A stretch of 64,000 nucleotides of DNA from Saccostrea echinata (Eukaryota): NCBI RefSeq assembly GCF_033153115.1, contig NW_026889758.1:11160001-11224000 (forward strand), given 5' to 3'. A program made the position numbers and the translations under genes. This document shows, piece by piece, positions 7,840-40,534 of the stretch; the first letter of the stretch is position 1, and the number at the start of each line of letters is the position of its first letter. Under the pieces are notes generated by a model. It was not told where the DNA came from. It saw only the letters and a list, made by a program, of their open reading frames with translations, and made no database searches.

Positions 7840-7893
7840 GTGACGTTGATATTTGGAAAGTATATACGACGAGTTGATTATCAAAATCTGTAC
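7840..7893 (+). promoter_or_regulatory. Core promoter of shelk2-like locus A (CRE-like half site, TATA, putative initiator)
   Basis: gtgacgt 7840-7846, tatata 7861, ctgtac 7888; same spacing as the three paralogs; exon 1 donor cagg|gtaaga at 7930/7931. Confidence 0.7.
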
Positions 7894-8190
7894 TACACGG
7901 CAGTCAAGCAGTAAGTCCACACAAATCAGGGTAAGAGTCTTTAAATATTTTTAGAATAAGAAATGATTTAGATTTCTCAAACTAAGCTTTACAGGTTACT
8001 TTGAAAATGCTTTTAAAAGACTGAATTTAGTGTTTTCTTTCTTTTAATTGCTAAAATGTTAATTTTCTTTTAATTTTCATAAGATTTAATGTTTTAAAAC
8101 AATCACGTTTAACTGCCCAGCAAAAAATTAAAACAGTAAAGTACTAAATTATATTTTTTTTTCTTCCAAATTTTCATCTAACAACAGAAG

Positions 8191-9060
8191 ATGATGAAAA
8201 TAATCTCTCTCGCCTGCATCGTTGCCTGCGTTTGTGCGGATTATTACCCAAAAAGTGGGGATTACTATCCAAAGAGTTATGGATATGATTATGGATATGG
8301 GGACTACTATCCCAAGAGTTACGGATTTGGTCCATATGGTAGCTTTGGAGGTGTGAACGGTGGACTCGTTGGCTTTGGCGGTATAAACAGCGGCCTCAGT
8401 GGCCTGGGAGGATACTATCCCGGTTTGGTCGGTATTGGAGGCGGTTCTGCTGCTGCTGGTTCAGCTTCCGCCGGAGGTGCTGCTGCTGCCGCCACTGCTG
8501 CTGCCGCTGCCAGACAAAATGCTGCCGCCTCCTCTGCATGCTGCCGCAGGAAACGGTGCTGCTGCCACTGCTGCTGCTGCAAGTGGACTAAACGTTGCCC
8601 CATACTATACCTATCCTGGGTATTATTACCAGGGACAACAATACTACAACTTCCCCAGCTACTACTTTAATCAGTATTCCAGAAACTACTTCCAATACCC
8701 TTTTCATGGTGTTGGAGGTGGGTCTGCTGCTGCTGCTAGTGCTGCCGCCGCTGGTCAGGCTGCCGCTGCTTCTTCTGCCGCCGCCAGTCAAGGATTTAAT
8801 GGACTCAATAATGGCGTCATTCTTGGAAGACATGAAGGTTTTATCGGCAGAAGATCAAGAAAGGTAAATTGTATTAAAAAGAATGTTTTTGTTTCTTAAT
8901 TGATGATAATGACTTTTTATTAATTATAGATAATAAAAGATATTTGTTATTAATCTGAATTTTTATGCACGATCTTTATTCATTGAAAAACCAAACTTTT
9001 TAAAAACCTTTTGCTTTCTGAGGAATTTAATGATTCGTCTTTTACTTCCAGGTTTACTAA
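8191..9060 (+). pseudogene. shelk2: Shelk2-like silk/shell-matrix protein, divergent paralog A, with +1 frameshift
   Basis: Signal peptide MMKIISLACIVACVCA, DYYPK repeats, Gly-rich and poly-Ala blocks. One extra base at ~8538-8539 (gca-t-gct) shifts from ORF 8191 to ORF 8399. Intron 1 7931-8187, intron 2 8864-9051, last exon GTT TAC TAA 9052-9060, aataaa 9124. Repaired product 226 aa ending RRSRKVY. Family name from recall, not from a search. Confidence 0.8.
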
Positions 9061-9692
9061 CTGGACTCTACATTGAAATCCTTCCTGGGCTCTTTGGGAT
9101 CACATATTTATTTTTGTTTTCAAAATAAATATTCAGCAATGAATTTTGATGTGTTTTGTATAATTGATTTACACTGTTCTGGCTTAGCAAAATCAGGAAG
9201 AAAACATCATTTGATCAAAAGTAAGAAAACATTCTGTTTTCTCAAGCATGGCTTTCTCTCCACCCTTTTTCCATGCTCAGATTTTTTCGTTTAAGGCTTA
9301 GGGCTTTAGGGCTTGATTTTAAATTTAAGATAGCTGCTTGCTTAAAATTTTGTAAAACTGAAATATTTCTTTTTATTGGTTCGATACCTACAAGTTCTGA
9401 AGAAGGAGAGGTTCTGTCTCAAAGGGGGAAAAATCTGTAAAATATAAATTCTGCAATGATTCTGCAATGTTCTCTAAGCTAAATACGCAAAGGGAAACAC
9501 TTTCTAGGCATCAAAAGCTCATGGATTTTAAGATTTTTTAAAGGCCAGATAATTGTATCAAATATCATACAAGGTCAGCATTATTATATTCTTTGTTTTC
9601 TTGGGTTTATATTGAAAAAAATATGTTAACAATCTATAGCTCTCAATTTCATTTTTGTTTTGTTATTTAGCTATTCACTACAATTAAGAAAG

Positions 9693-9884
9693 GCCCATAC
9701 TATACATATCCTGGGTATTGTTACCAGGGACAATAATACTACAACTTCACCGGTTACTAGTTTAATCAATATCCCAGAAACTACTTCCAGTACCCAAAAC
9801 ATAACACTTACAGTCCTTTTGTTGGTGTTGGAGGTGGGTCTTCTGCTGCTGCTAGTGCTGCCTCCGCTGGTCAGGCTGCCGCTG
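9693..9884 (+). pseudogene. Shelk2-like gene fragment (type A), two in-frame stops
   Basis: Reads PYYTYPGYCYQGQ*YYNFTGY*FNQYPRNYFQYPKHNTYSPFVGVGGGSSAAASAASAGQAA; aligns to ~8600-8770. Confidence 0.85.
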
Positions 9885-10140
9885 GAAATAATTGATACTA
9901 TTTAGAGGACATATAATGAGTCGTAAAGAGTACAGATGGCTATTTTACACAATGTCATTTCGATAATTTTGATCTTCATAAAGATGATAGTCTTTATTTT
10001 AATGTTTGAATGGATCTGCATGATTTCTAAAACATCAATATTTTAGCATCAGCTTCATATTTTTAAAGAGATTACAAAATAACGGTGGGCTTGCTATATT
10101 CCTGATGGAGACCCAAAGGTAAATTTTTTTTTAAAAAAAG

Positions 10141-10560
10141 ATGACAGAGGACAGTTTTTTCTTTTGGTTTTTTTGTTGGGGTTTTATTTTATTTTATTTT
10201 TTTTTTGTTTTTTTTTTGTTTTTTGTTTTGTTTATTTTTTTGTTGTTGTTTTTGTATTGTTTTGTTTTGCAATCAAAACGTTTGGCTGTGGTATTTCTTA
10301 ATATGAACCTGCTAGTAAAATGTATAATGGAAATTGTTTTAAACTAGCTCTACATGTAACAATAATTTGTTCTTGTCTCTTGAGTAATTCGAACCTTCTA
10401 GGAAAAAAACATGTACATCTAACTTATTGATACCAAATTATGACACAGGGACGATCTTAAAAAATTAATGAAAATATAGCCTTTTTCGGTATTTCACCAG
10501 AAGGGGGGATGTAGGTTCTAACTACCAAATTTAATTAATACATTATCAAATAACCATATT
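10141..10560. mobile_element. Partial copy of the DNA element at 58314-58974 (opposite orientation)
   Basis: gacagaggacagtttttt...caatcaaaacgtttggctg...ctctacatgtaacaata is the reverse complement of ~58850-58967. Confidence 0.6.
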
Positions 10561-11078
10561 TATGACTTATCTTTGCTACAACAAAAAATTAAAGGGCCCA
10601 CCAGCCTTTCAATAAACAATTGCAAAAGTAAATGGTAATGTTTGGAAAAAAGTAAGGGGCAGCCCATTGCCCCCCTCCCCCTGATACTACGTGTTGCAGG
10701 AATGGGGAGCTCGAGACATAAATAGTTAGATCATAGTAGTCTTACGGACTACTGTCTCTTTCACCACTTTTAAAGAGGGAGAGGCACAAGTCCAGTAAAA
10801 AATAAAAAGAAACTATATAAGTTTTACTAGACTTGATGTTAATTGATATTTGCTTCACTGGGGTAATCTTACTGCTCATGTCTCCCCCATTTTTTTTTTT
10901 ACAAAACGTTTTCGGGTCTTTCTACACTCAAATAGCAAAAATTTGACACTTCACACATTTGCAGTCACTAAATCCCGAGTAAAATGACGTTTCATTAGAA
11001 TTCCCTTGCTCTCGAAGTTAGTTCGAGAACACTATTTTCCCACTCTTTCTCTCGAAATTGTGGCATATTTATATCATA

Positions 11079-12430
11079 CTAGATGAAATCCCGCGCAAGC
11101 GCGGGTAATTGAATTTATACCACTACCGACAAAAAATATATTGTAGTTTCTACTGACAGCCTACAGGCTTATAGCAGGAAGAAATACTTTGTTCAAAATC
11201 CCGCATGTGCGTCTCCAACCCATCCCACCCCCTTTTGTAAAAACTTGAAAAAATAACAATTTCATTAATTGAAGTTTATTGTGAAACCTGTTATACTATG
11301 TTATGGATATTGTACTTCAGATGCTCCTATTTCATTTCCGTCAAGGATAACAGCAGCGAATATGCACATTTTACTGATAAATTGATTGTTTTGTTTTGTT
11401 TTTTTTTTTTTGAAGGGGGGGGGGGGTAAAATTCACAGGTACTTGGGTCTTGGTTTATGAATATGTATGTACCTTATTGATATGTAAAAAATGTACTTTA
11501 CCTTTTTTACATATCAATAAGTTACATACATATATATAAACCAAGACGCAAGTACCTGTGTAAAAATTAGCTTTAAACGGCTAAACGCCCTATGAATAGG
11601 CCGAGTATTTGATACAAAAGACTGTATTCAGGAAAAAAAAACTGAAATGTATTGATTAAAGCACAAAATTTTACAGCTTTAATTGTATTTGAGCAATATC
11701 TTATTCATTAATTTTCTCTTTTCATGTAAGCAATTTTATTACGAAGTAGAAATTGTACTTCGGGTTCGTTGCCACGATGCTCTCAGTGAGGAATATATAC
11801 ACATTTTTCCGATAAATTTATTAGGAAAACCTACTTCATATATGTAATAGTCTTTAGATATATAAATATATTCACAACTTACAGTGTTATCAATGATTTA
11901 CCATTATTTCAATGACTATTCACACATAAGCTTTTTTATGTCCCGGCAGCTATAATCGTCTCGTTTTTCTTTTTAATATCGGGCTCGATGCTATATGATG
12001 TTCTAGAAGCTTCCGTCAATATTAAGATCGGTGAATGACAAAAAATAATTTGCACATTTTCCTTTTTAATCGGTTATCACAACTTATTTCTTTTATGTCA
12101 TTTAAATCAAGTTAATCGAATAATTCAGTGATGACGTTTTATGAAATAAATAAACGATTGATTGTTGTCAGTTGCATTGAAAATTGCCAGAGACTTAGAT
12201 CCGCCAACCGGAAACGCCACCGTGCTCACGTTTTTGCTATTTCATGGCTGTTTATAGAAAATAAAAGTAGACTTTTAATTTAATGTACGATACTTACTAT
12301 GCGAGTTAAATCTAAATATAGTTTACGGACATCATATTGTATCTAGTGTATTCTTAGAGGAGTAAGTAAAAACTCTGGTGCATCCGTTTCGGAGTTTATT
12401 TGCAAAATTTATTAATTTATAAGTATAAGA
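11079..12430 (-). mobile_element. Non-autonomous Helitron
   Basis: On the minus strand: 5'-TC at 12430, 3'-CTAG at 11079, GC hairpin cccgcgcaagcgcggg (11090-11105) just inside the 3' end, inserted in an A^T site without TSD. Confidence 0.8.
11434..11560. repeat. ~127-bp palindrome inside the Helitron
   Basis: cacaggtacttgggtcttggtttat...ttattgatatgtaaaaaa mirrors ttttttacatatcaataa...ataaaccaagacgcaagtacctgtg. Confidence 0.8.
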
Positions 12431-14924
12431 TATGCTTTTATTTTTATTAATGCATGTCTACATTACTATATCGATATCTTAAAATGTCATGCTTAGATCA
12501 ATATTTTCAAATCAGTATTTTAATTCGATACAATTGATAGCAATTAAATCAATCAAATAAAAGTAGGTACTTTAAATCATGTAAAATAAAACACCTGAAT
12601 GCAATGCAAAATAAGCGTATATATTATAAAGCATAACACTTTGTATATCGAAAAGACACCTAAAAATGAGACAATTTACATGTAATAACACAAGTGTAGA
12701 GACCTATACGCTTCCATAATTAGGTGCATCGTTTCAATGTAATATCAGAATTTTTGAGTATGAGCATTATTTTCTCTGTATTAAATTGTCAACATATTTT
12801 TGGCGGTCAACCAGAAAAAATAATCATTTGTCACTGTAGTTATAAACTGACTTTACATAGACAGTAATTGGAAAGAAAACAGTTAATTAGTTCCTGGTGT
12901 TGTGTTATAACAACAAATTATTTGTTTTATGACACTTGCACCTATAATTGCGACAAAATTTTACTTTCTGAGAAAATGTCAGTTATGATCCTATACTCCC
13001 TTTACAGTTTTTTTTATTAGATGATCTGTAGATGGTTAAATGAAGGAAAAAAGTAAAGAATTCATCAACAAAGTATTGCAAGGAGAAAAAATAGCGAAAT
13101 GCATCTCTAAAAATGTGAATGTTTCAGTTGTGTTTCACCTTGAGTCTTAAAAATAAGATGAATTAGAGATATATGTAATAAACAAAAACGTAAGGTTACT
13201 GGTTTAAAGAGAGATGTAGAGATTTGTTTAGAATTTACAAAGAGAAACTGTTTTCATTCAATAGATGCAGAAGTCATTTTAATAGACAATTATTGATTGA
13301 ATGTAAAAACGATTATAAAAAATATATGTATAAGGCAAAATGTGAGTTTATGCGATGTCAAGGTAGCCAGTTAGAATATCTGAGGCGCACTTCGCCAAGA
13401 GAATTTTTAAATTTTTTTTAAGAATCGTAGGCCAGAAAACAAGTGTAATCGTAAGAATTTTATGAACATTTCAGAAACCTAGGAGTCTGTAAAGATGTTA
13501 CATATACTGATTTTTCGAATACAGTATATGATATGAGTGCTGTATTTGATGAACTAGATGTTAATATAACTGTTGAAGAGGTTGTAGATGTTATAAACTG
13601 TTTAAAAAGCAGAAAATCGCCAGGAAAAGATAATTTGATAAATGAGTATTTTAAATATATGTGTGAAGACCTAAGCCCACTTTTAACAAGAATATTTAAT
13701 GTTATTTTTGACACAGGAAACATTCTTCTTAGATGGTATGAAGGTGAAATAGTACCTATCCTTAAAAAGGCAGACCCAAATGTAACAGGTGACTATAGGG
13801 GGCATTACCCTCATGAGTTGTATGTTAAAAATATTTACTATACTTAATAATAGACTGATGAAATGGTCCGAGACTAATTCTGTTTTAACTGATGCACAGT
13901 TTGGATTTAGACCCTTTCGAATGGGAAAAAGCTCTACTGTTGTTTTGTGGACTACTGTAAGGCATTCGACAGTATTAATAGAAATTATCTTTTCAAAAAG
14001 CTCATAACATTAGGGATCAAGGGGAAAATCAAAAGCTCATAACATTAGGAATCAAGGGGGAAACGTTTAAAAGTATATGGTCTCTGTATAAGAATGTTAG
14101 GAGTTGTGTGGAATACAAAAACAATTATAGTGACTTTTTTAGAGTAGAACAAGGAGTCCTTCAGGGAGAAGCACTGTCTCATTAACTTTTTTTCTTTATA
14201 TTTAAATGATTTTGAAAATGCTTTTATCAAATCTAATTGTCAAGATATAAATCTCCAAAAAGTATCATTGTTTTTCATGTTATATGCAGATGACATGGTA
14301 TTATTTTCCGATTCTCATGAGGGATTACAAAAAATGCTTGATGTGCTTTACTCATATTGTAATGATTGGAAAATATCTGTAAATGTAAGTAAAACTAAAA
14401 TAGTAGTATTTAGGAAATCTAGTCGATTGAATCAAAATTTTAATTGGTATTATAATGATGAAGAAGTTGAAGCTGTCAATCAGTTTACTTATCTTGGTCT
14501 CACTCTGACATACAAAATCTCAGGTAAAATTGGCTACTCAAGGGAGGAAATGTATGTTTAAACTTTTGAAGTCAATGAAGAATGTGCATTTTAATTATGT
14601 TGCTCATTTATCTTTGTTTGATACTTATGTAAGTAGTATATTGAATTACGCAAGTGAAATATGGCAATTCCACAAAGGTTATGCTATAGAGAAAATACTT
14701 TTAGAATATCTCAAAATTATGGTGAAAGATAGAAAAAATAACTCATCGTTGATTATCTATAATGAACTTGGTCGCTTACCTCTTTTTATTCAAAGGAAAA
14801 TTCGCATTCTAAAATTTTGGTTAAAATTATTGGAGTCAGAAAATTGTATATTGAAAAGTATTTACCAAGATATGCTTGAAAGACTTGAGACAAGTCCTTG
14901 TACAAAACATAACTGGTTACTTAA

Positions 14925-15592
14925 GGATATCCGATCCTCAGCCAGGAAGGATAACTCTTAAATTTATTATTTTATTTAAAAAGTCTCAAAATGAAGCTTG
15001 AAAATGAGATCTTTTCGTGCAACAATTTTCATTTTATGCATCTAAATGTGATTCAAGGTTCTTTGAAGCCTTAGAAACGGTCTTGTTAAAAGTTGACATT
15101 TGTACCCCATAAAAGAAAAAAATGAATTCATTTTTAGAGAAATTTAATTTCCTTTAGTCTAGCATTAGATACGACTGCTTATTAGCATGATATGAAATTA
15201 GAAGTGATATGTGATGTCTAGCAATGATAGCACAAGCTTTTTATACTATGTATTATATGAAAATTGAGGTAAAAAGAGGAAATAAAATACTGTATAAGCA
15301 TAAAAAAGATATAATTTTCTCTAAATGCCTGGATACCTATATTTATCTATCCTAAATTATATTTGTTGATCAATTTTCAAGTAGAAAATGCATAGCTGGT
15401 GTTTTTATTCGCATTTCTTGAAAATATATTTGAGATTTGATAATTTTCCCTATATAATATGATTAACTATAATGATGAACATTGAAGAAATTCCATGGGT
15501 AAATTCACGTTACTATGTGAAATCAGAGACATTTTTGTGAGCATTTTCAATTACTTAAAAGCTGATTTTCAGAACCTGAGGATCGGACTACC
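14925..15592. mobile_element. TTAA-targeting MITE (Kolobok-like) nested in the LINE
   Basis: TTAA TSD at 14921-14924 and 15593-15596; TIRs ggatatccgatcctcag / ctgaggatcggactacc (GG..CC termini); empty site preserved in the inverted LINE copy at ~16505-16512. Confidence 0.85.
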
Positions 15593-15668
15593 TTAATGTA
15601 ATATTTTTACTATTTTCCTTACGGTTTGGAGAAGCTTGGAATTGTCAAAATATTACAAACAAAGTTTT

Positions 15669-16184
15669 AAGGTTTTTAAAAAGTTTGGTTTTTCAATGAA
15701 TAAAGATCGTGCATAAAAATTCAGATTAATAACAAATATCTTTTATTATCTATAATTAATAAAAAGTCATTATCATCAATTAAGAAACAAAAACATTCTT
15801 TTTAATACAATTTACCTTTCTTGATCTTCTGCCGATAAAACCTTCATGTCTTCCAAGAATGACGCCATTATTGAGTCCATTAAATCCTTGACTGGCGGCG
15901 GCAGAAGAAGCAGCGGCAGCCTGACCAGCGGCGGCAGCACTAGCAGCAGCAGCAGACCCACCTCCAACACCATGAAAAGGGTATTGGAAGTAGTTTCTGG
16001 AATACTGATTAAAGTAGTAGCCGGGGAAGTTGTAGTATTGTTGTCCCTGGTAATAATACCCAGGATAGGTATAGTATGTTGCAACGTTTAGTCCACTTGC
16101 AGCAGCAGCAGTGGCAGCAGCACCGTTTCCTGCGGCAGCATGCAGAGGAGGCGGCAGCATTTTGTCTGGCAGCGGCAGCAGCAG
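15669..16184 (-). pseudogene. Inverted 516-bp duplicate of shelk2-like locus A (8495-9010)
   Basis: Reverse complement matches 8495-9010 with about 3 mismatches; includes the frameshift and part of intron 2; lacks promoter, start and last exon. Confidence 0.95.
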
Positions 16185-16561
16185 ACTAAGTGCACATTTA
16201 TTAATGATTGAGAAGGGAAGATTTACTAGATCTTCCCTTCTCAATCATTGATAAATGTGCACTTAGTCTATATTTTGAATATACTTGGTTGGAATTTGTT
16301 TCATTAAGTAGGATTGCATGCACAGCTTATTTGTTAGATATCTATACACAGAACACTTTGGTGACAAGAAAAAAAGCCTCGCATTCTTGTTGAAAACAGT
16401 CAGTTAATCTTTGTTAATTTTTTTTTAAAAAACATATTTTTGTTTGTAATATTTTGATAATTCCAAGCTTCCCCAAACCGTAAGGAAAATAGTAAAAAAA
16501 ATTACAATAAGTAACCAGTTATGTCTTATACAAGGACTTGTCTCAAGTCTTTCAAGCATAT
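16183..16561. repeat. Fold-back inverted duplication of LINE sequence with 87-bp hairpin at 16183-16269
   Basis: agactaagtgcacatttattaatgattgagaagggaagat mirrors atcttcccttctcaatcattgataaatgtgcacttagtct; ~16437-16561 is the reverse complement of 14870-14924 joined to 15597-15663. Confidence 0.9.
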
Positions 16562-17757: not shown

Positions 17758-18099
17758 GACCGTCACGGTAGCTTAGTCGATAGAGCTCTCGCTTCGTGAT
17801 AGGAAGATCGTGTGGTCGAATCAATGTCGCGACTGACCTAAGTCGATAAAAATTAGGTAGCAACTGTTCCTTCGCCAAGCGCTCGGCACTTTGAAGAGAA
17901 AGTTGCTGGTCTTTCTGATGAGACCTTAAAAACCGAGGCCCCGTGTCACGGTAGGCGTTGGCACGATAAAGAACCCTCACTGCTCAATGGCAATGAGTGC
18001 GGAGTAAAGGTCCAAATTTGCAGTCCTTTTCCGGTATATGGTGATGTCTCTAGATGAGTAAAAAATTCTCGAACGGGACGTAAATCAACACACAATCAA
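17758..18099 (+). mobile_element. tRNA-derived Meta-core SINE, full length
   Basis: Head gtagcttagtcgatagagc, core gatgagaccttaaaaaccgaggccccgtgtc...gcacgataaagaaccc; 13-bp TSD tcatatgcrtcaa at 17745 and 18100. Confidence 0.9.
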
Positions 18100-18710: not shown

Positions 18711-18711
18711 A

Positions 18712-18823
18712 CTCTTCAAGTGGAGGACTAAACACCGGATTCTTCAACACTGGAGGTCTCAACACAGGAATGTTCGGTCTTGGAGGTGGGTCTGCTGCCT
18801 CTGCTGCTACACAAAGTGCTGCT
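18712..18823 (+). pseudogene. Orphan shelk2-like fragment (type B)
   Basis: SSSGGLNTGFFNTGGLNTGMFGLGGGSAASAA; about 90% identical to 23217-23303. Confidence 0.85.
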
Positions 18824-22254: not shown

Positions 22255-22792
22255 AATTTTTTTTAAGTGAGACAAGCACAATTGTGACACGCACCTTTGA
22301 AGTACAATCTTCTCCCATAATCATAAATCTAATTTGAGCACATCATATATCATTTAACAAGAAAGAAAATAAATGAGTTGAAACAACCAGTAACACCGAC
22401 TTCATGTTAAAATATAAATAAATTAAATCCCATTCATCAATGTACATATAGAGAGAAAAAATGAAATAAATAAGAAAATAAATAAATAAAAAAAATTATC
22501 CTGTATAAATCATTTCATAAGTCCAAATCGTTTTTTAAAGTTGTTTGCTTAAGATACTGTTGGTGAAAAATCTGGTGAAAAAGAAGTATTAATTTATTTA
22601 TAAGAAATGTCTTGAAAAAAAAATTCTGCGTTACGCATAATTTATTAAGATTTGGCAGTTCACAACTAACTTTTAATAATGACCAACTCCAAGGAATGTT
22701 GATGTCATCCTGTCAATCATAATACTCTTCCTTAAAACTTAATTTTAGTTATTATTAAAACAAGAAATTAATCACATTCACCGCCCTTCCGT

Positions 22793-22846
22793 GTGACGTA
22801 ACCATTTGGAAACTATATAAACATCGATAATTCGAAAATTCTGTAC
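22793..22846 (+). promoter_or_regulatory. Core promoter of gene B1
   Basis: tgacgtaa 22794, tatataaa 22814, ctgtac 22841; exon 1 donor aag|gtaaga at 22882/22883. Confidence 0.8.
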
Positions 22847-23045
22847 AAACAGTGGTTGCCTTCAGAAGACCGTTCAAGCAAGGTAAGATTACAGCTATAA
22901 GATATTAGTAACACTACAGTTATTCTAGATACTGTTAATAAAATTCCTATAAATGAATCAATTCCTACCAAAAAAGATCATAACACTCTACATGGTAATA
23001 TTATTTTTCTCATAAATAAATAATTGAACTTTTTTTCAACAGAAA

Positions 23046-23947
23046 ATGTTGAGACTCATCTCCATTGCCTGTATCGTTGCCTGCGTCTTCGCAGACTCTT
23101 ACCCAAAGGGTGACTATTACCCTAAGAATGACTACTATGGTGGATGTGGAAAATATGGATGCACATACGGTATCCACTCTCAAGGTCCCTATGGTAACTT
23201 TGGAGGAATAGTCAGCTCTACAAGTGGAGGACTTAACACCGGATTCTTCGGCACTGGAGGTCTCAACACAGGATTGATCGGTCTTGGAGGTGGATCTGCT
23301 GCCGCAAGCGCTGCCGCCGCCGGAGATGCTGCCGCTGCTGCTAGCGCAGCCGCTGCAGGACAAAATGCTGCCGCTGTTGCCGCTGCCGCCGCTGCCAATG
23401 GAGCAGCTGCTTCATCTGCTGCTGCCACCGGAGGTTTTGGATTGAACATTGCTCCATACTACTTCAATCAACCAGGATATTTCTATAATTTCCCAGGACA
23501 GTATGGAAACTTTGGTCAATACTACACCTATCCCAGACATTACTACAACAGTTTCCCCATCTTCAATAACTACGTCCCATATTTTGGTCTCGGAAGTGGA
23601 TCCTCCGCTGCTGCTAGTGCTTCTGCTGTTGGTGGAAGTTCTGCTGCTTCTGCTGGTGCTTCTGCAGGTGGATTTGGTGGATTCAACGGAATTTATGACG
23701 GAATCTTCCTCGGAGGATCAAGACGTAATTTCAGAAGAAGACACAGCAAGGTATGATTTAAACATCATTTGTAAGTCTTAACTTAGCGTCTCTCGAACGT
23801 CTTTATTTCGTTTTCTATCGAACAAGTTGAACCCTAGTTTAATTAACATAGTATATTAATATAATTTCCATATATATATTATCTATATTTTAATTTTACA
23901 AATAATTATGTGCTTATTGTTCTCTGCATATATTTCAGGTGTACTAA
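23046..23947 (+). CDS. shelk2: Shelk2-like secreted silk-like shell-matrix protein B1 (237 aa; coding 23046-23750 + 23939-23947)
   Basis: Signal peptide MLRLISIACIVACVFA, YPK/DYY N-terminus, GGLNTG repeats, poly-Ala blocks, Tyr/Phe/Asn-rich domain, basic tail RRRHSKVY. Intron 1 22883-23042, intron 2 23751-23938 (GT-AG), aataaa 23999. Family assignment from recall. Confidence 0.92.
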
Positions 23948-26900
23948 TGGATCCGGCCAATATAAACTGTTTCTGGTGATGTTTTGTTAATTTGTGATAA
24001 TAAATGTTTTATACTCAACATAGCTTTTTTATTTTCTAAATTCAATGCTGCAGAAGAAAAAAAAATTATTGGTATCCAATGAAAGGATTTTTTTAAAGCT
24101 CTTTAAAGTGATTATAAGAAGTATAGTGTTGAAATTTTGTAAAGCTACGTGTATAAGAATCTTTATACTTTTTTAATACAAAGATTGCAAAATTAAGAAA
24201 TACTTTCCAAGGAATAATAGAAAAATAAATATATATATTTTAAAGCAAGTTCGTATAATAAAAAAGTATACTGATATTGAGTCAATAGTGTAAGAAATAA
24301 TGACCGAATACCTCACCTCTACTGAGAGGAATTGAAACTCAGACCCATAAATTAAAGGGCTTAGTGTTTTAGTATTGAGGTTAGGAGATGCACAAAGATA
24401 TTATTTCCACTAAAATTCATCTACTTTGAGCATTTTCCTTTGTTTATTGAGATTTTTTTCCAATTGTAAAGTAATAGGAAGAGAAACTCGGCTGTATAGA
24501 TAAAGAGCACAATTATACAGAACTGACAAACTTCCTCAAGCATAGAGAGAGTGGAGGTGAAGAAATTTTGTTGAGCAATCGCTTTTGCTTGGATTACGAT
24601 ATTGTTGATATTGAATGCGATAATAAGAGCATGTTTTTGCGTGAAAACCAGACAAGGTATGCACCAGAGTTTACTGTTAGTAACCAGGCATATATTTAGA
24701 ATAAACACATTGTCCATTCAATCTGTCAATTAGAATATGCTAAGTCAGTGACATAAGTTTCATGTGTTGATATTGTTACAGTGAATAAAAGGTTTAAGAG
24801 AAAATGGGAAGACAATTAATTATTTGTTAAAATCAAACCATTTTGATTTTGAAGATGTACATTCTGGACTCAATAATAATAAAGAACCATATTCATATAT
24901 ACTAGGATATTATAATGTAAACGATTCTCGATTCTTCATTTCTGATCAGTATAAGGTCAGGGTTATTCTCAAACTATATATAGGGATATTTTATCTCTAT
25001 CGAGATATTTGTCAAACTCAAATCGAGGTACCATCAAATCACTAATTTTTGAGGGGGGGGGGGTAATTTTTGTTGTTTTTGAGGTATGAAGAGACCCACG
25101 ATTTATGCTCACCACAAAATGAAAAAGTGTCAAATACAAAACTACTCAATCATCCTTCAATCATAAAATCAAATCCCCACGAACCCATTGTTTTTCATCA
25201 AACAAGAAAAATTTGAACCCACGAGCATATGTGACTATACAGTATTTTACGCAGGTGTATATAATTTCGATTCCTTTGAAATTGTTGTACGTGATTTTTT
25301 TTTTCAATTGTAATATCCAGAAGTATTTTACTTTAAGCAAAATACTTAAAGTATAAAGTAGCTTATTGATTAAATCATTTTGTGTTACATTTTCCCTTTT
25401 AGAGAAGGGAAGTAAATGGTTATTGATTTTTGGTGTTTAAGATTTTGTTTTCATCTATTATTATTATAAACAAATGTACCTGAAACCATTTCAAACTTTC
25501 AGAATTCCAAGAAATGCAAATTTATACAAATACAAATTTAGCGATCTCAGCTGGATTTCTACTGGATTTCTGGAAATACGTCAATATATCGAAAATGATC
25601 AAACTCATAAATCTAGCAAACATGGCAAAAACACAGACCCCTTAATTACAAGAAGTTGGAGCAGGTGCTTAGAAGGGGTGAGCATCTCCTGTCGACTTGT
25701 CACACCCGCCATGAACCCTCTGCATCTATCATTCAAACGGAGCAATCCGTAAGATGCATAACAACATTGCCTTGAATGTCGGTCAAAATACGAACCGAAT
25801 CAATTTAGAAAGAGGTATATTGAAAGCCATTATAGATAATGGGAAAACTTCATAAATGATTTTTTCTGTTTGCATGTCTAATGATCTATTAGATATATAT
25901 TTTTATTGAAGATATATATATTTATAATAATCCTTGGACGATATAGTAGCAATGTAATTGATCAATGACATTACTGAATATTCTACACTTTACAATGCTC
26001 TTAATCGTATTTAATTATTGTTTTATTTACTACAAATATTATGCATGAAATATATTTCAAAGGCTGTATACTGTATTAATATTGATTACAATTTTTATTT
26101 CTGTCTTTTGATTTCAATCGGTGTATAATTTGTATACATGTATTTGGGTAAGGTTTTTTTTGTAATTTATTTATTCATTTTTGTGTACGTGTGTTTTGAA
26201 AATCCTACTTTGCAATAAACAAAATTGTTTTTCTATTTTTCGGACTTTGTACTTTTCAAAAAAAAATATTCATTAACCCATTCTTTTTTTTAATAAGTTC
26301 TATATAAAAAAACAGGGCACTTAAGCAATAGCAAATGGGTCCTTTTTAGTTCCATTTAAAAAATATCTTGTTTTGTAATAATTTAACATTGGTGGATATA
26401 CTTCTGATTAAAAATCACGTGCAACATCACCAAGACTGGCATGGATAGCAAACTACTAGGGCTTTTTTAATTGCTATAGATAATCCAGAAAAATAATATC
26501 GAAGCTACTAACATCAAGGGAAGGACTCGACTGTTGAACAAGCTGATGGTGGATCGATGTGCACTTTTGTCGAATGATAAATTCGAATAGAGCTATGTAA
26601 GTTGTCTGTAGTCATAGTGATAAAACTAAGAGTTTTGCACGCTAGCATTTGATATAATAGAATAAAGAAAGTATAAGTTTCTCTATCCATTCGAGGCAAG
26701 GATTTTAAATTACAAAAAAGTATTTAGGTGCAAAAGGCCGAACTGTTTTATTGTACATTTGTACTTGCATTTAAGTAGACAGTTGATCTATTTTGTTATC
26801 AAAGTTATTTGAAGCCAGAAGAACTTCACAAGAAAGTATCATAAAATAGAATATTGAAATAAAATTTTGAAATAAAAAAAATCGTACAGATAGTTTTCGC

Positions 26901-30378: not shown

Positions 30379-31608
30379 CCATAAAGGGCCACAAATCTCT
30401 ATTTACTCATCTTGGTCTTTTTGATTTTTCGAAGATTTGTAAAAGAATTTTTCCTTCTTTATTATCATTCAAAATTTTGGTCCTGCACTAAGGCTCAATC
30501 CTAGCCCCAAAGACGCAGATTTAAACGTAACCAAACATGAATCCACATAACATGGAAAATAAATTTAATGCCTCAATATCAATACATCAGTGTCCTTACT
30601 GTGTTGGAGATGTTTTCCTGAATATATACATTATGTAAAATTGTTGCTCTATTTGCCCCCCCCCCCATCCCCACACCCCAAAAAAATTAACGCCAGGGTC
30701 CATAATATATGCAATGGATCTCATACAAGTTTTGAATGTCAGATAGTATTAAAGTGAAATTTCAGTGGGTTTCGTATTTTATGTTCTGATTTTTTTTAGA
30801 TGGATCACTGATTGTTATCACCTTATTCATATAGCAAGTTTTGAATAAACCACTTCAAAAAGTTTCATTTAATTTTTTTTTTATTTCATTTAATGTATTT
30901 TTTTCTGGTCAGTGGTTCTAAAACGAAAAACTTGAATAACCCCATCCTATGATTTTCTTGTCTTTTTTTTTTATCTCCCTATAAAGGGAACTACTTGAAC
31001 AAATTGTAACCATCGTTCTTACACAAGGACACACTCAAGTACACTGTGAGACAAGTACACTGTGAGACAAGTACACTGTGAGACAAGTACACACTGAGAC
31101 AAGTACACTGTGAGTTAAGTACACTGTGAGACAAGTACACTGTGAGACAAGTACACTGTGAGACAAGTACACTGTGAGACAAGTACACACTGAGACAAGT
31201 ACACTGTGAGACAAGTACACTGTGAGAGAAGTACACACTGAGACAAGTACACTGTGAGACAAGTACACACTGAGACAAGTACACTGTGAGACAAGTACAC
31301 TGTGAGACAAGTACACACTGAGACAAGTACACTGTGAGTTAAGTACACTGTGAGACAAGTACACTGTGAGACAAGTACACTGTGAGACAAGTACACACTG
31401 AGACAAGTACACTGTGAGACAAGTACACCGTCAGACAAGTACACACTGAGACAAGTGCACTGTGAGACAAATACAATCTGAGACAAGTTTCAATGGTCAA
31501 AGAGAAGAGAAGGAAAATGTGCAAATTTTGTAATGACGCCGAGAGAGACAACAGACAATTTTTTATTTGAAAAGCTCATTTGAGCTCTTGTTTCAGGTTG
31601 GCTAAAAA
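30379..31608. mobile_element. Degenerate HINE/pearl-type element hosting a minisatellite
   Basis: Terminus aaagctcatttgagctcttgtttcaggttggctaaaa preceded by a gacaacagaca remnant; left end approximate. Confidence 0.5.
31036..31488. repeat. 16-bp minisatellite (caagtacactgtgaga / caagtacacactgaga), ~28 units
   Basis: Direct reading; explains the repetitive minus-strand ORFs. Confidence 0.97.
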
Positions 31609-34311
31609 TAGCAAGTATAGTAAACAGAAGATGCATTTGTCATTTAGCGCTAGTAGTACCTGGCCATAAGTACCTGTATACGTAACATGAAAATTAGATA
31701 TGAAAATAATTTTTCATATTAGCAACACGAACACCAGTACATTTTTTCATTAAAACTCAACACCTTTCAAAATCGCTTTGAGGTTGATTTTAAATTTTCA
31801 AGTTCAGGGGCTAAAGAAAAAAAGGAAAATAATAAACATAAACCTATCATGAAATTCAAAGACACAACTAAAGCGACAGAAGAAAATCTAAAGCTGTTCT
31901 AACTCTGTATATGTCAATGGATTGTTGTATGTTATTCAATAGTTCAACGTCCCATTCTCATTTATATAGATACGTCGATATTAGCAGATCAATAGACAAA
32001 AAACTTAATGATTAAGAAAACACATAAGTATAACAAGTTATAAAGAATAGAAAAATAAGAGATAATCAAAATTTAAAAAAAAAATAAATAAAAATAAGTA
32101 TATTTTTTTAAAAATAATACTAATTAATAAATAAAAAGACCAATTTATTAATTAATCAATTAATTTTAAAATACATAATGGCAGATAACATTAACAAACA
32201 CGTGTTGTTTGTCAAATTTAGGTCTACATTCTTGAATGTTTTAAATCATTAGAAATTATTCAAATTATTAGATATGCCTTTTGTTTATTCTAAAATTAAT
32301 TTTAAAGTAAAGTAAAAGGTTCACGGTGTATCTAACTAGAACATTTTGATATCATATAAATAAAGCATCCTCAGATTCAATATATATTAAAGTGAATTAC
32401 CGAAAACACAATGTTTCATGTAATAAAAAATAATTTGTACATGTCAATACAAATTTCAATAGTGCAATATCCCCATGCATTTTACCTAAGAAAAAAATGC
32501 ATACTACATGGAATAATACATTTCATTTGTTTGTTTCAAAGAAATTAAACAATCTTTAAAATATTAGGAAAAAAACCTATCCACTTGCAAAAAAAAAAAC
32601 CCTGACAGTCTATCATACTTAGATAAGTCTTACACTTTAATTTTACTCAAGTCATATGTTTCATAATTATGATTCAAAAATTGTTTTGTGGTTGAAATTT
32701 TACATCAAATTTTTGTTTATTGTCAAAATAACATTTTCTTATTAAATGTTTATATATATCATTGGATTGAGGTAATGAACAATGTCAATCTACTATTTTT
32801 AGGACGTATCATTTCCATCAATTCGATAAAAAAGTTCTAAATTATAAATTCATAACATACATAAATTAACTTATAATGATGATTCAAAGTAGACACTTGA
32901 ATATGTAGAATTAATTGGATTTTTTTCCCTTCCATTCTTAAGGATACATATCACAAACAATTTGATGCATGGATTGTTATATATCTTAACTGATTATGAA
33001 TGGAAATGACATAAATAATAAATCCTTAAAATATACAAAGAAATTGTAAGTTCTCATTGGTATTTAGGTATGCGACTTTGAGTAGTTTTCTATACAATTC
33101 TATATAAAATATTGCACACATTTTTATCATTGTGACAAAATATTGCAAATTTTCCCACTTTACCTGGCAAACATTATTCAGGTTACCTATTTGAATATAA
33201 ATCTATGAGAAATATTGCTGATATCTAAAAAACGTTTCTGTTATTTAACCTTAATATTATAGCATTTTGAAAATTAAAACAAATCATTAATGTTTTTTTT
33301 AATAGAAAATATTGACAAGATCAATCTATTTTCTGATTTATCTTTTTCATGTTATACATTATTTATGAAGATTTCCTATTTCACAAATAGCTTAAAATAA
33401 TAATAATAATAATAATAATACAAATATTGACTGGGGATGATGAGAACAAGAATGATTATTTTAGCCTCCAATTGATAAGATATTGCCAGACGAAGAGTGG
33501 AAGGTAATATTTTCATCCCGAGGAGGCTAATATATTCAATGCAAAACACATGTGTTTTGTTATAGGAATACCATTTTTTTTTATCCAAAACAAATCAGTA
33601 ATATAACATTGGAAACAAATTCATTTAAATAAATAATTTAAATTTTGTATCCCTTTATTTATTGTGATGCCATGTTTTTGAAAGTCCCGACGTTATCATT
33701 ACGTCACAATATATTAGTATACTGATCAGAATCAAGATCAATAAAAATGTGGGAATACTCTCCTTTCCGGTCAATAGGGAAAAAAATAAATGACTGTCAA
33801 TATTTCTCGGAGGATCTAATATCAATTATATTGACTGCTTTTATGCATAGAGAATAAAGAGATATTCTTTACTGAATTATCATTCCGTAAATCAGAACAA
33901 ATAATATTCCTGTAAATCTATACAGAAGAAGAGTATTTAAATATGATATACGAAAAAATTCTTTTGTATTAATAATAATTTCTTTAAAGCACAAATTTTA
34001 GAATTCCAAACAGTGTTTTTCTAAAGTTATGTTCTTAAGATAATATTGAAAAGGAAGGAAAATGTTCTTTTGAAAAGAAGATCAATTGAATTTTCAGAAA
34101 ATACAAAAAATAGTTATCTTTTTATATTTTTATCTTTTTATGGTTTACGCATAATTTATAATTTGGCATTTCACAACAAACAATTTTTAAATTATCAAAT
34201 TTTAGAATAATTAATGTCATTCTGTCGATCACAGAAAAGCTTCCTTTTAACATCAATTTGGTTATTATTAAGACAACTTTAAGAAATGAATCACACTAAC
34301 CACTCTTCCTT

Positions 34312-34365
34312 GTGACGTAAGCTTTTGATAAGTATATAAACACTGTTGCTTTGAAAACTCTGTAC
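34312..34365 (+). promoter_or_regulatory. Core promoter of gene B2
   Basis: tgacgtaa 34313, tatataaa 34333, ctgtac 34360; exon 1 donor aaa|gtaaga at 34404/34405. Confidence 0.8.
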
Positions 34366-34580
34366 AAGAAGCAGTGTTAGCCTTGTGAAGAGCAGCAAAG
34401 CAAAGTAAGAGTACAAATATTAGACGTATTATTAAAAACGCTACAGTTCTACGAGGCACTCTTCATAAAAGTTGTTTCATTGAATAAATTTTAAGAGTTG
34501 AAAGAAGATCATATCGCTTCACATAAAATTATGTTTTTATATCTTTTAAATAAATAATTGAACTTTTTTTTCAACAGAAA

Positions 34581-35448
34581 ATGTTGAGACTCACCTCCCT
34601 TGTCTGTATTGTTGCCTGCGTTTTCGCAGACTCTTACCCAAAGGGTGACTATTACCCTAAAAATGACTACTATGGTGGATGTGGAAAATATGGATGCACA
34701 TACGGTATCCACTCTCAAGGTCCCTATGGTAACTTTGGAGGAATAGTCAGCTCTACAAGTGGAGGACTTAACACCGGATTCGTCAGCACTGGAGGTCTCA
34801 ACACAGGATTGATCGGTCTTGGAGGTGGATCTGCTGCCGCAAGCGCTGCCGCCGCCGGAGATGCTGCCGCTGCTGCTAGCGCAGCCGCTGCAGGACAAAA
34901 TGCTGCTGCTGTTGCCGCTGCCGCCGCTGCCAATGGAGCAGCTGCTTCATCTGCTGCTGCCACCGGAGGTTTTGGATTGAACATTGCCCCATACTACTTC
35001 AATCAACCAGGATATTTCTATAATTTCCCAGGACAATATGGAAACTTTGGTCAATACTACACCTATCCCAGACATTACTACAACAGTTTCCCCATTTTCA
35101 ATAACTACGCCCCATATTATGGTCTCGGAAGTGGATCCTCCGCTGCTGCTAGTGCTTCTGCTGTTGGTGGAAGTTCTGCTGCTTCCGCCGGTGCTTCTGC
35201 AGGTGGATTTGGTGGATTCAACGGAATTTATGACGGAATCTTCCTTGGGGGATCAAGACGTAATTTCAGAAGAAGACACAGCAAGGTATTATCTAATTTT
35301 CATTTGAAACTCTTTCTTTCATTTTATGTTAGACAGTTTAAGCTTTTTATTAACAAGCTATATCAAAATCGTCTTTTGCGTTCATTATCATTCAAATTTA
35401 CAGATAATTTGTGTTCATTTCTCTCTGCATATTTTTCAGGTGTACTAA
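34581..35448 (+). CDS. shelk2: Shelk2-like secreted silk-like shell-matrix protein B2 (237 aa; coding 34581-35285 + 35440-35448)
   Basis: About 97% identical to the B1 coding exon; intron 1 34405-34577, intron 2 35286-35439; last exon GTG TAC TAA; aataaa at 35461 and 35503. Confidence 0.92.
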
Positions 35449-35685
35449 TGGATCGGTCCAAATAAAAATGTTTCTGGTGACGTATTGTTAATTTGTTATT
35501 ATAATAAAGTTATATACTCAAAGCAGTTTGTTGTGATTTAAATTTTATGCTGGAAAATAAAAAAATATTTTCAAAAAAGGTATTGTTGATAAATACGGTG
35601 TGAAAAATTTGTGAATTACTAGGCATTTTGTTTTGTTATACTACCTGCTTCAGTTTTACGATTCAACTTCAAGAATACAAGATTG

Positions 35686-35723
<38 letters not shown>

Positions 35724-37254: not shown

Positions 37255-37497
37255 ATTAATTGTTTGTTTATTAATTTGTTTGTTTAACGTCTCTTCGAGA
37301 ATTTTTCACTCATATTCAGACGCCACCACTTGCCGGTGGAGGGCTGCAAATTTATTCCTGTACTCGGCACTTAGGCCTTTGAGCAGTGAGGGATCTTTTT
37401 CGTGCCAGCACCTACTGCAACACGGAACCTCTTTTTTACGGTCTCATCCGAAATTCTCGAACGGGGCGTAAAACAACATACAATCAATTAATCAATC
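37255..37497. mobile_element. Chimeric SINE remnant: minus-strand core and tail fused to a plus-strand tail
   Basis: 37255-37452 is the reverse complement of SINE core and tail; 37451-37497 aaattctcgaacggggcgtaaaacaacatacaatcaat is a forward tail. Confidence 0.8.
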
Positions 37498-37679
37498 ATA
37501 ATATGTATATTCATGTGGCACTCAACAATTAATAGCATAAGAACCCTTTTTGAAAAAAATTGGAGTGTTGAATGTGAAAGGTTCCCGATTTTTCATCTCT
37601 GAACAATATTTAGGGCAGGATATATGCTGCGTAGGGTATTGTTGTTGTTTTATGTCCCTTGAATTCATAAAATTTTACC

Positions 37680-38751
37680 AAAATCAATAACATCAAAACG
37701 TACGACTTTTGAACACTTTATACAACAATTCACCATGATAAATTAAAGTCGAGGCTTTTTGACATCATAGACGACTGCTTTTTCAATAAAAATGGAACTA
37801 GTAAATTTTCTTACCTTGTCATTAGTCATTTGCAAAATGATTTTGATAAAAACATTCTGAATGTACACTAAGTACTCCGAAACAGATATCAAAAAGATGC
37901 TTGAGTTTCTGATTTACAATATCTGTGTAGTTTTTGGAGATCAGGTCTTCCAACAATTTGTCGGAATTTCCATGGGTATCAATTGTGCCCCTTTTTTATA
38001 TTTTCGTAGCAGAATTCATTCAAAAACTTATACTTGAGTAGAAGAAAACATTTGCTGTGCCATTCAACTCGACATTTAAATATATCGACGACGTATAATC
38101 AATTAACAATAGTTACTTGCCAGTGAACTTGAAATAAAATATACCAAAGGGTTCGATAAATCTGTTTCATATTTGGATATTTTACTAGAAAAAATAAAGT
38201 TAATGGTTACCTAACAAAACTTTATGATAAATGTAATGACTTCAACTTTTCTATCGTCAACTTCCCTTACTTATGTACATGTAGCAATATACCCTTATTA
38301 CCTGCAGATGGGATCTTCCAGTTGATTCGATACGCAAGAGCATGTTCCACGTACAAACCATTTCTAAAACGAGGCAAACTATTGACAAACAAGATGATGA
38401 ATCAAGGATATCAACAGTCTCGTTTAAAGTCAACATTTTGCAAATTCTTTGGTCGATTCAACGACCTTGTCAGTGAATAAAATCTATCATTGAGTCGAAT
38501 GCTTACTGACGGTTTTCACACTAATTGTTAAGTCATTATTTAAACACTGAATTGCCTATGGATTCTTCGTTTGCCCGATCATGATAATTAGCACACAAGG
38601 GGTGTGACTGGTCGACAGGGGAAGCTTACTCCTCCATGGCACATGATCCCATTCTGATGGTTTTTAGAGTTCCGTCTTTGCTCAGCTCCCAATTTGTATC
38701 ATTTTAATGGATTTTTGAGCTTGATTACCGTTCGTTATCTCCATATTTCAT
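37680..38751 (+). mobile_element. Penelope-like retroelement, decayed RT and 3' end (possibly Naiad-type)
   Basis: KTYDF*TLYTTI, MLEFLI, QQFVGISMG.NCAP, FKYIDD, SIVNFPYLC, QLIRYARAC; RT runs to the element end with no C-terminal GIY-YIG visible. Confidence 0.85.
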
Positions 38752-39736
38752 TGCAAGATTATTTCACTCATATGATTGTAGTGAAATGTCCCGTTTAAAA
38801 TCATACATCCCTGAGCCGATAAAGAAGCATTTAGACAAAAGAGTGATATCAAAAGCAAAATCTTATTAATTGAATTTCAGCATTATCAGTATGGCATGTA
38901 TTAATGTTGTAAAAGTATAGTGGCATTCATCAATTTTGTCGGAGGTATTTTTTTTAAATGAATGAACAAATAAATAAAAAATATAAAGTAAATTAAAAAA
39001 TTGGAATATTAAGAAACATTTTTTCACAAATATAAATCTTCAATCTAGAATGTGCCCCTTAGTTAGGAATGTAGTTTTAAGTTATCAGACATCAGTGCCT
39101 TCTACTTATTTCTAAGAATTAGCATAAGCGAAAGCTTTCCCGATCAATCTCAAAAACAATTTTGATGTTTAGATTCACCAAAGGCATTTTTTTTTACGTT
39201 GTCCATTTATTATGTCATATAATAAATAGTTTTCAAGCTTTTATGTCAATGTTATACTGATACGCTGTTTCATGTTTTTATTTCTTTCAATGATCAACCA
39301 ATTGTTTAAATTTCACAATAATTTTGTTTCAAAAATACATGTATTGAAAATTCTGAAAAACAAATAAGAGAGAAACATACCTCCTAGCAAGAATCAAACA
39401 TGTGTTACAAACCTTAACGGCAATTTCCATATATAATACTGGACAAATGCAAGTATTTGTATATAGGTTACACTTACATTTTTCTCAATTCATATGTTAC
39501 CCGTGATCTATGAATATGATTTGATTTGAATTTAAATTTGATATTAGAATGATATTTATTTCCAATATTGATAACTGCTTTAAATAACAACAGTTGATGC
39601 ACTGAGCAATTTACACATCTACGATTCTTAGAGCGTAAATTTCCAATGAAAAAAGTAAAACGTTAGGACATTTATTTTACACTGCTGTCATTTGAATACA
39701 TAGGTAATAGTTTATCTGTTTTGCACTAAAACAACC

Positions 39737-39859
39737 CTCCTGAAACTTAAAATAATCCAGGAAATAACGTTACGTGTAGAGGTATCAATGGATTTTAAAA
39801 ACGTGCATGTGGTTGGAAATTAATAGCTTTATTGTGCAATGACAAGGAATAACACATTT
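39737..39859 (+). promoter_or_regulatory. Conserved distal upstream block of gene B3
   Basis: Homologous to 22131-22254. Confidence 0.45.
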
Positions 39860-40480
39860 CATTTATTTCGATTCAGTGTGAGACAAAGGCATTATTTCGC
39901 CCACCTTTTAACCAAAGAATACTTCTTTGATTATGAATAAAATTTGCATATCTGACGTGTCGTTCAACGCCACAGAGAACACGAGATGATACTACACTTA
40001 ATGTTACAGCAATTCTTTTACAACCATTAATGTACAGATATTGACTAGTAATTATGATCCAAAGAATATACCTGTAAATGTATACAGAAATAAAGAATTA
40101 AGATATATTATAAGGGAATTTCTTTTGTATAAATAAGAATTATTTTAAAGCCAAATTTCAGAAGTCCCAAACAGTGTATTATTCAAGTTATTTTTTAATG
40201 ATTATATTGAAAAAAAAAGAGCAAATATTCTTTTAAAAAGAGATTAATTTGAATTTTCAGAAAATTCTAATAAAATAACTATTTTTAATCCTTCTATCTT
40301 TCTATGAATTAAGCATAATTTATGAAGATTCAGCATTTCACATTGAACTTTTGTTTTAAATTATCAAATTTTAGAATAATTAATGTCATTCTGTCGATCA
40401 CAGAAAAGCTTCCTTTTAACTTCACTTTAGTTATTATTAAGACAACTCAAAGAAATTAATCACATTCAACACCCTTCCTT

Positions 40481-40534
40481 GTGACGTAAGTGTTTAATTA
40501 CTATATAAATACCGTTACTTTGAAAGTTCTGTAC
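40481..40534 (+). promoter_or_regulatory. Core promoter of gene B3
   Basis: tgacgtaa 40482, tatataaa 40502, ctgtac 40529; exon 1 donor acg|gtaagg at 40570/40571. Confidence 0.8.

Follow-up and report, generated by a model that had tools for sequence, protein, structure and literature searches.

Each of four tandem genes for poly-Ala/Gly/Tyr secreted proteins in a Saccostrea-like oyster is preceded, just before its short first exon, by the same three DNA words in the same gap-free register. The best account of this module (probability about 0.76) is an ordinary inherited TATA promoter with a CREB/ATF-type site 20 bases upstream of the TATA box, kept by purifying selection. On this account the TATA box would position initiation at the A of CTGTAC, 31 bases further on, the upstream site would be of the bZIP type, and the four paralogues would have inherited the core promoter from an ancestral gene, with selection preserving its motifs. 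As a conserved CRE-like plus TATA promoter the module is likely functional, and it is most likely not a new regulatory code.

The motif triplet and its four genes

A search of the whole window (the 64,000-nucleotide stretch of DNA analysed) for TGACGT-N14-TATATA-N21-CTGTAC returned four matches on the forward strand and none on the reverse strand. TGACGT starts at 7841, 22794, 34313 and 40482, exactly as listed in the first-pass annotation, which was also right about the fixed offsets: at all four loci, TATATA starts 20 bases after the start of TGACGT, and CTGTAC 27 bases after the start of TATA. The conserved words span seven bases in GTGACGT, six in TATATA and seven in TCTGTAC.

7840..7846, +: locus A, GTGACGT containing a half-CRE (TGACGTTG, 6/8 against the full CRE)
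7861..7868, +: locus A, weak TATA box (TATATACG)
7887..7893, +: locus A, TCTGTAC as putative start region, with the A at 7892 the likely +1 (spacing rule, PMC1779604)
7892..9130, +: gene A, with A-type spliced contigs; exon 1 to 7930, intron 7931-8187, exon 2 8188-8863, exon 3 from 9052; ATG 8191; AATAAA 9124; frame shifted by one additional base near 8538
22711..22778, +: additional upstream words, shown for B, present also in A, C and D
22793..22799, +: locus B, GTGACGT (TGACGTAA, 7/8 against the full CRE)
22814..22821, +: locus B, TATA box TATATAAA
22840..22846, +: locus B, TCTGTAC as putative start region
22845..24004, +: gene B, exon 3 matched by the loose end of one contig; exon 1 to 22882, exon 2 23043-23750 (ATG 23046), exon 3 from 23939; AATAAA 23999
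34312..34318, +: locus C, GTGACGT (TGACGTAA)
34333..34340, +: locus C, TATA box TATATAAA
34359..34365, +: locus C, TCTGTAC as putative start region, with 34364 the likely +1
34364..35510, +: gene C, intron 1 GT..AG joint in one contig; exon 1 to 34404, intron 34405-34577, exon 2 34578-35285 (ATG 34581), exon 3 from 35440
40481..40487, +: locus D, GTGACGT (TGACGTAA)
40502..40509, +: locus D, TATA box TATATAAA
40528..40534, +: locus D, TCTGTAC as putative start region
40533..41668, +: gene D; exon 1 to 40570, exon 2 40733-41440 (ATG 40736), exon 3 from 41599; AATAAA 41663

Among the 19 forward-strand TGACGT sites in the window, 4 have a TATA-like word at exactly +20. With one mismatch allowed, GTGACGT-N14-TATATA matched the same four places (0.07 expected from shuffles), and TATATA-N20-TCTGTAC matched these plus two one-mismatch places on the reverse strand (0.20 expected). 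As the four loci are paralogues, these whole-window chance figures are no test of function. The window gave no tRNA or Rfam matches. Further upstream words common to all four loci had been missed earlier: TGTC(A/G)AT(C/T)A lies at -103 to -113 and TTCCTT at -86 to -95 from TATA, both with variable spacing, and CACA-T lies at -41 at every locus.

The paralogues represent about two independent lineages, A against B, C and D. In the protein tree, the sister of A is a Saccostrea echinata protein (support 100/100), and ∼0.87 changes per column separate A from B, C and D, a deep split. B, C and D share 77–87% identity in upstream DNA and 76–81% in the core; the introns and upstream DNA of A align to the others no better than shuffled DNA. 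The description of all four genes as full-length fails for A, whose frame shifts near 8538 in the assembly; despite this frameshift, an RNA contig carries an intact A-type transcript. The contigs came from runs presumed, as a guess, to be RNA, with no record of tissue, library or treatment, and the region onto which they were placed was that of gene C. They omit intron 1, with its GT..AG ends, and carry the exon 1 ends of C and A. The joint 34404-34578 (GT..AG) lies in one contig of run X2; the exon 1 ends of C and A are loose ends. For gene C, this contig evidence places the module directly upstream of a transcribed, spliced first exon. No contig lies upstream of the bin starting at 34378, 14 bases inside the predicted C transcript, and the contigs cannot map starts.

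The product is predicted to be a poly-alanine, secreted silk-like protein. Among 1.84 billion representatives, a profile search returned 19 matches, of which the best six were already known and eleven were new (P0026-P0036). With the oyster 'spidroin-like' or Shelk2-like poly-Ala proteins (XP_061173261.1, XP_052696721.1), the window proteins share an N-terminal hydrophobic leader, the word DYYPK, poly-Ala tracts between Gly/Tyr-rich blocks and a basic tail. 'Spidroin' is an automatic name only, and the window proteins matched no Pfam family. Takahashi 2012 (cited in PMC4944945), by its title, reportedly concerns mantle-edge expression before shell regeneration, and is said to be connected to the name Shelk2. 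Shelk2 is named in PMC6542584; no protein of that name was among the homologue matches, and the relation of the window proteins to Shelk2 is putative.

Conservation of the promoter block

Across the four promoters, the block from -45 to +44 is free of gaps in 90 of 90 columns and contains three invariant runs, GTGACGT, TATATA and TCTGTAC. At least three runs of six or more appeared in 351 of 200,000 column shuffles, and 22 of the 70 columns in the rest of the block are invariant. Of the control regions, neither intron 1 nor intron 2 nor the 3′ flank had a run of five or more, and the DNA farther upstream had one (TTCCTT); over 394 gap-free columns, introns and 3′ flank showed nothing comparable. 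The intervening bases differ between loci, as had been remarked, at 25–64% per pair, and the motifs are conserved above this local background. Because they stand out against spacers, introns and 3′ flank, selection is likely, and it would be purifying selection that maintains them. Gene conversion homogenizing the promoters was considered and rejected, given how far the spacers differ in each pair.

If shared descent alone were at work, the motifs would be stretches of duplicated DNA that happened to stay identical, with no selection acting on them. The high likeness of B, C and D both upstream and in the core is in keeping with this, and the motifs were chosen after inspection. However, the flanks of A are at shuffled identity, yet 20 of its 20 motif bases are in register, so that the identical motifs are not residual similarity. 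The low shuffle count, the lack of comparable runs in introns and 3′ flank, and the location of the motifs where promoter elements are expected also argue against descent alone, which we regard as extremely unlikely.

TATA box, predicted start region and upstream site

The TATA box consensus is TATAWAAR, and boxes of this type are present at three of the four loci (TATATAAA in B, C and D), with TATATACG in A. The weakened TATA box of A, like its weakened site TGACGTTG, had been recognized in the first-pass annotation, and both are weak points of the ordinary-promoter reading. Focused TATA promoters start 29–32 bases from the first T of TATA, at a PyPu dinucleotide. Such a dinucleotide, TA, stands at offset 30/31 at all four loci, and in mouse a PyPu start works best with TATA at -31/-30 (PMC1779604). 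The spacing of 31 from the first T supports the proposed TATA box and a start on or close to the A of CTGTAC. As this distance is the textbook one, a special explanation is unnecessary, and established promoter rules make it very probable that TBP would bind here and position the start. TATA-box focused Pol II promoters of tissue-specific genes (PMC1779604) have the same box 31 bases before PyPu (alternatively, in B, C and D, TATAAA 31 bases before CA), and share with the window genes a short first exon and an apparently abundant structural product. Unlike these, the window genes include a degenerate box in A, and their predicted start region, invariant over 7 bases, does not conform to the initiator consensus.

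CTGTAC, proposed as an initiator, does not match the initiator consensus. Initiators follow TCA+1KTY, BBCA+1BW or minimally CA+1NW (PMC13532657); with its own A as +1, CTGTAC fits neither the first nor the last of these, the -1 base being T at all four loci, and moving +1 to the next A makes CA+1NW fit one of four (B only). The 7-base invariance of TCTGTAC exceeds the need for a PyPu dinucleotide, fits no consensus in PMC13532657 and is not fully explained by the TATA-promoter reading.

The suggested CREB/ATF-type core is present in that all four loci contain the half-CRE TGACG. None is the full palindrome TGACGTCA; B, C and D read TGACGTAA and A reads TGACGTTG, and the invariant word includes the upstream G and excludes the last two CRE bases. 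From its sequence, GTGACGT probably binds an activator, for which a CREB/ATF-family bZIP is a somewhat favoured candidate. By their binding preferences, the factor acting on a functional promoter might instead be a PAR or C/EBP-containing bZIP dimer (GTAA half, in B, C and D), a CREB3/XBP1-type secretory-load factor or a non-bZIP protein. The missing palindrome and the extent of the invariant word would suit such a binder, and CREB3L1 drives a matrix gene via a CRE-like site (PMC6616197). Against it, TGACG is the conserved half of the CRE and CREB binds TGACG half-sites (PMC7532970), and A keeps the site without a GTAA half; we consider a binder outside CREB/ATF very unlikely.

In proximal CRE and half-CRE promoters (PMC7532970; 10.1101/625434), a TGACG half-site likewise lies near and upstream of TATA, and its nearness and rotational position affect output. 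Unlike full-CRE promoters, the window sites lack the palindrome, their CREB/ATF assignment is putative, from the motif, and the distances tested with reporters in 10.1101/625434, from ∼67 bases, are longer than those in the window. A parallel for a bZIP factor on bivalve shell structural-protein genes is Pf-AP-1, which activates shell-protein promoters in pearl oyster (PMC4585884). It differs from the putative window factor in belonging to the AP-1 class, with predicted sites 81–191 bases upstream of Pearlin, and in coming from another bivalve family and unrelated genes.

Homologues, spacing and significance

In Magallana homologues whose gene models read through their own promoter (P0006/P0007, M. 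gigas/angulata), we tested for compatible motif positions. The sole TATATAAA-compatible place lies 71 bases before the ATG, against 72–75 in the window (16 of 3,000 shuffles). The TATA position is thus kept, but TGACGT and TGACG are excluded at the corresponding place, as is CTGTAC at +27, and the best upstream site match is offset by one base relative to the window. As TGACG is excluded, the site is not family-wide. P0007 allows a one-mismatch site at -22 with TCTNNAC at +26 (0.0002 of 20,000 shuffles, with wildcards picked post hoc). The same read-through test found no TATATAAA-compatible place in models P0009, P0015, P0021 and P0025. A fused S. cucullata model (P0011) would accommodate TCTGTAC at -40, and other readings too (chance ∼0.05). 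Two alignments used to scan metagenomes for related genomic loci gave 359 and 642 pattern matches, none of them confirmed.

The first-pass annotation had read the triplet as a rigid, helically phased bZIP-TATA-initiator code coordinating damage-inducible mantle expression, possibly across shell-matrix genes. The gap-free block is consistent with this and hints at more spacing constraint, beyond TATA-to-start, than the ordinary-promoter reading needs. CACA-T at -41, the site at -20/-21 and TATA at 0 are about two turns apart, CRE activity shows ∼10-base periodicity in human reporters (10.1101/625434), Pf-AP-1 rises after shell notching (PMC4585884), and the P0007 match, with its wildcards chosen after seeing the data, points the same way. 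However, there are only about two independent lineages, and at flank indel rates a 14-base spacer would show no net indel by chance with a probability of 0.34–0.70 per pair. The distal shared words shift by up to 10 bases, and P0006/P0007 exclude TGACGT and CTGTAC at these places, with the upstream match off by one base. Site-to-TATA spacings of 20 in the window and possibly 21 in P0006/P0007 are both compatible with phasing or with none. Mild constraint, on closeness and perhaps rotation, probably acts on the site-to-TATA spacing, and a rigid phased code for damage-inducible mantle expression is unlikely. Quite unlikely, too, is a reading in which TCTGTAC would be a start element of oysters, linked to TATA and beyond the known initiator consensus, that together with CACA-T two turns up and a bZIP site locked in phase would be the signature of an injury-inducible shell-matrix regulon across unrelated genes.

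As we found no study of the A–D promoter and no oyster start-site map in the open-access literature, the 90-base footprint gives concrete bases to mutate. As the promoter of an apparently abundant silk-like gene, it is a candidate for a strong promoter in work with oyster cells. The module offers a first handle on the regulation of this gene cluster and leaves the understanding of promoters unchanged; it would gain larger importance only if shell genes unrelated to these proved to be marked by the spaced pattern, or if TCTGTAC acts as an element of its own.

Four promoters and the genes behind them

The motif arrangement at loci A to D, four paralogous + strand copies of an oyster gene for a poly-Ala/Gly/Tyr, predicted secreted silk-like protein, is real. 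A scan of the window with TGACGT-N14-TATATA-N21-CTGTAC returned four matches, all on the + strand, and the motif coordinates in the first-pass annotation were exact at every locus; the three hexamers it named are all present, but the words actually invariant over the four loci are GTGACGT, TATATA and TCTGTAC.

Starts of TGACGT (+ strand, pattern scan) and of the distal word TGTC(A/G)AT(C/T)A
7841, + strand, TGACGT of A; distal word at 7748
22794, + strand, TGACGT of B; distal word at 22711
34313, + strand, TGACGT of C; distal word at 34223
40482, + strand, TGACGT of D; distal word at 40392

Among the 19 + strand TGACGT sites, a TATA-like word follows at a distance of 20 bases in just four, those of A to D. 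With a mismatch allowed, the upstream pair still gave 4 matches (0.07 expected), adding no site, and the downstream pair gave 6 (0.20 expected), the extra two on the − strand.

Each motif set (4/4) stands before a gene of three exons: the first, non-coding, measures ~38–41 bases counted from the predicted start at the A of CTGTAC, an intron of 160–257 bases separates it from the coding exon, and the third holds two codons plus AATAAA. In B, C and D the second exon codes for 235 residues, and the product combines poly-Ala tracts and Gly/Tyr blocks with a hydrophobic leader and a DYYPK word. No Pfam family was found for the three proteins tested. Protein search gave six matches, from Magallana gigas, M. 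angulata and Saccostrea echinata plus one unnamed JGI protein; two bear the automatic name 'spidroin-like' and none is named Shelk2. Mantle specificity of these genes cannot be assumed, because gill and gonad show differential expression of oyster spidroin-like genes, which are discussed as shell-related (PMC12040131).

All four genes had been described as full-length. Locus A is frame-shifted by one base near 8538, a shift common to an inverted partial copy at 15669–16184 (99% identical), but the loose end of a contig from X1, a presumed RNA run, crosses this position and lacks the additional base, which shows that there are intact A-type transcripts; A in the window is a null allele or an assembly error. 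Within 13455–16561, the inverted fragment adjoins a decayed reverse-transcriptase element (RVT_1 at 14148–14561) and is flanked by 92-base inverted arms (15592–15682 and 16422–16511) and an 87-base hairpin (16183–16269); it is possibly a gene piece captured by a mobile element, or else an assembly fold-back. Two more promoterless gene fragments lie at 9694–9884 (A-type, 82%) and 18712–18799 (B-type, 92%). Other repeats are a palindromic array at 43406–43821 (a GC-rich 22-base unit in ~11 copies, then a perfect 58-base inverted repeat), a 16-base minisatellite of 28 copies at 31036–31488 and a MITE-like 557-base element at 55748–56304 with 90-base inverted ends (97%).

Conservation and spacing

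In a 16-row tree, built on low-complexity sequences and soft in its deep branches, A was sister to an S. echinata protein (support 100/100), and B, C and D formed a separate clade (100/99) in a fork with Magallana lineages whose branching order is not settled; the tree points to a likely Saccostrea-like oyster as the origin of the window and makes the four promoters about two independent lineages. In B, C and D, exon 2 (23046–23750, 34581–35285 and 40736–41440) is 97–98% identical, with fourfold sites differing by 3–5%, while the introns are only 65–76% alike, close to the shuffled level of ~68%, making gene conversion restricted to coding exon 2 likely.

Non-coding DNA of A aligned to the other loci at 60–75% identity, no better than shuffled A with the same aligner (65–69%), so it is saturated. 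All 20 motif bases are kept at A. With the four loci aligned, the block from −45 to +44 (offsets from the TATA start) was gap-free across 90/90 columns, and 22 of its 70 columns outside the motifs were invariant; at least three invariant runs of at least six occurred in 351 of 200,000 column shuffles. Across 394 gap-free columns from the two introns and the 3′ flank, no invariant run reached five bases, and DNA further upstream had a single run of at least that length, TTCCTT. As judged from these alignments, promoter conservation exceeds shared descent, and selection on the motif bases is likely.

The motifs had also been called rigidly spaced. The gap-free block speaks for this, as does a CACA-T word at −41 in 4/4 loci, which lengthens the fixed register and favours constraint. 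However, the TATA-to-start spacing is ordinary: the first T of TATA and the A of CTGTAC, the latter preceded by T, are 31 bases apart, and in mouse data this distance is constrained to −32 to −29, with an optimum of −31/−30 and a PyPu start (PMC1779604). B, C and D have a second register, with TATAAA 31 bases ahead of the next A. Nor is an indel-free 14-base spacer between site and TATA improbable, its chance at flank indel rates being 0.64–0.70 per B/C/D pair; where the pair includes A it is 0.34–0.41, a figure that the saturation makes unreliable. Distal words common to the loci float, TGTC(A/G)AT(C/T)A at −103 to −113 and TTCCTT at −86 to −95. The reverse complement of the former in B, TGATTGACAG, resembles the Pbx-Meis/Prep site. 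A rigid spacing code is, at best, weakly suggested by these comparisons, and helical phasing, were it real, would have a precedent, because CRE position effects with a ~10-base period have already been reported from human reporters (10.1101/625434). A bolder reading, in which TCTGTAC is a start element of its own in a phase-locked injury regulon, seems to us improbable.

Magallana homologues and transcripts

The gene models P0006 and P0007, of M. gigas and M. angulata, begin with a spurious N-terminal extension, apparently a translation of promoter and exon 1; their true start is likely the later Met. Presuming no intron in the model over that stretch, their sole TATATAAA-compatible place lies 71 bases before the true ATG, versus 72–75 in the window, a placement matched as well by 16 of 3,000 shuffled peptides. 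The extension leaves no + strand position for TGACGT, TGACG or ACGTCA and rules out CTGTAC at +27. It does allow TCTNNAC at exactly +26 and, with one mismatch, GTGANGT at −22 (window −21); in P0007 it further allows the AACCACAA word of A at −45 (window −44). The peptide also permits canonical TCACT at the TCTGTAC place. TCTNNAC and GTGANGT arose together in 0.0002 of 20,000 shuffles, the wildcards having been picked after seeing the data. Four other gene models were uninformative and P0011, a fused S. cucullata model, was ambiguous. Read cautiously, this suggests an architecture older than the genus, in which the hexamers can vary and, in Magallana, the upstream block may lie one base farther from TATA.

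Assembled contigs from four of six listed presumed-RNA runs were compared with gene C. One X2 contig skips 34405–34577, with GT..AG ends, and reaches 27 bases into exon 1. Loose contig ends matched the end of exon 1 of C in X1 and of A in X2, while one in X3 matched exon 3 of B. No contig covers the gene C motifs or upstream DNA, cover starting at 34378, 14 bases past the predicted start. Such cover agrees with a promoter at this place but does not map the start.

Known elements and the kind of promoter

The GTGACGT site reads TGACGTAA in B, C and D and TGACGTTG in A. CREB/ATF is its most likely binder, with PAR or C/EBP partners as an alternative. The half CRE TGACG (PMC7532970) is present at 4/4 loci, the full CRE TGACGTCA at 0/4. 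CREB3-type factors, too, act on matrix genes through CRE-like sites (PMC6616197). In the pearl oyster, bZIP control of shell-protein genes is known, with Pf-AP-1 up after notching (PMC4585884). TCTGTAC, with its own A as +1, fits neither TCA+1KTY nor CA+1NW, consensus forms of the initiator (PMC13532657); of all the parts, only its seven-base invariance lacks a full explanation.

Titles and abstract starts in the open-access literature revealed no study of oyster start sites or of the promoter of these genes. Standard inducible, tissue-specific promoters have this layout, in which a proximal half-CRE precedes a TATA box and the start lies 31 bases on, and the four-locus promoter is likely functional and of this ordinary kind.
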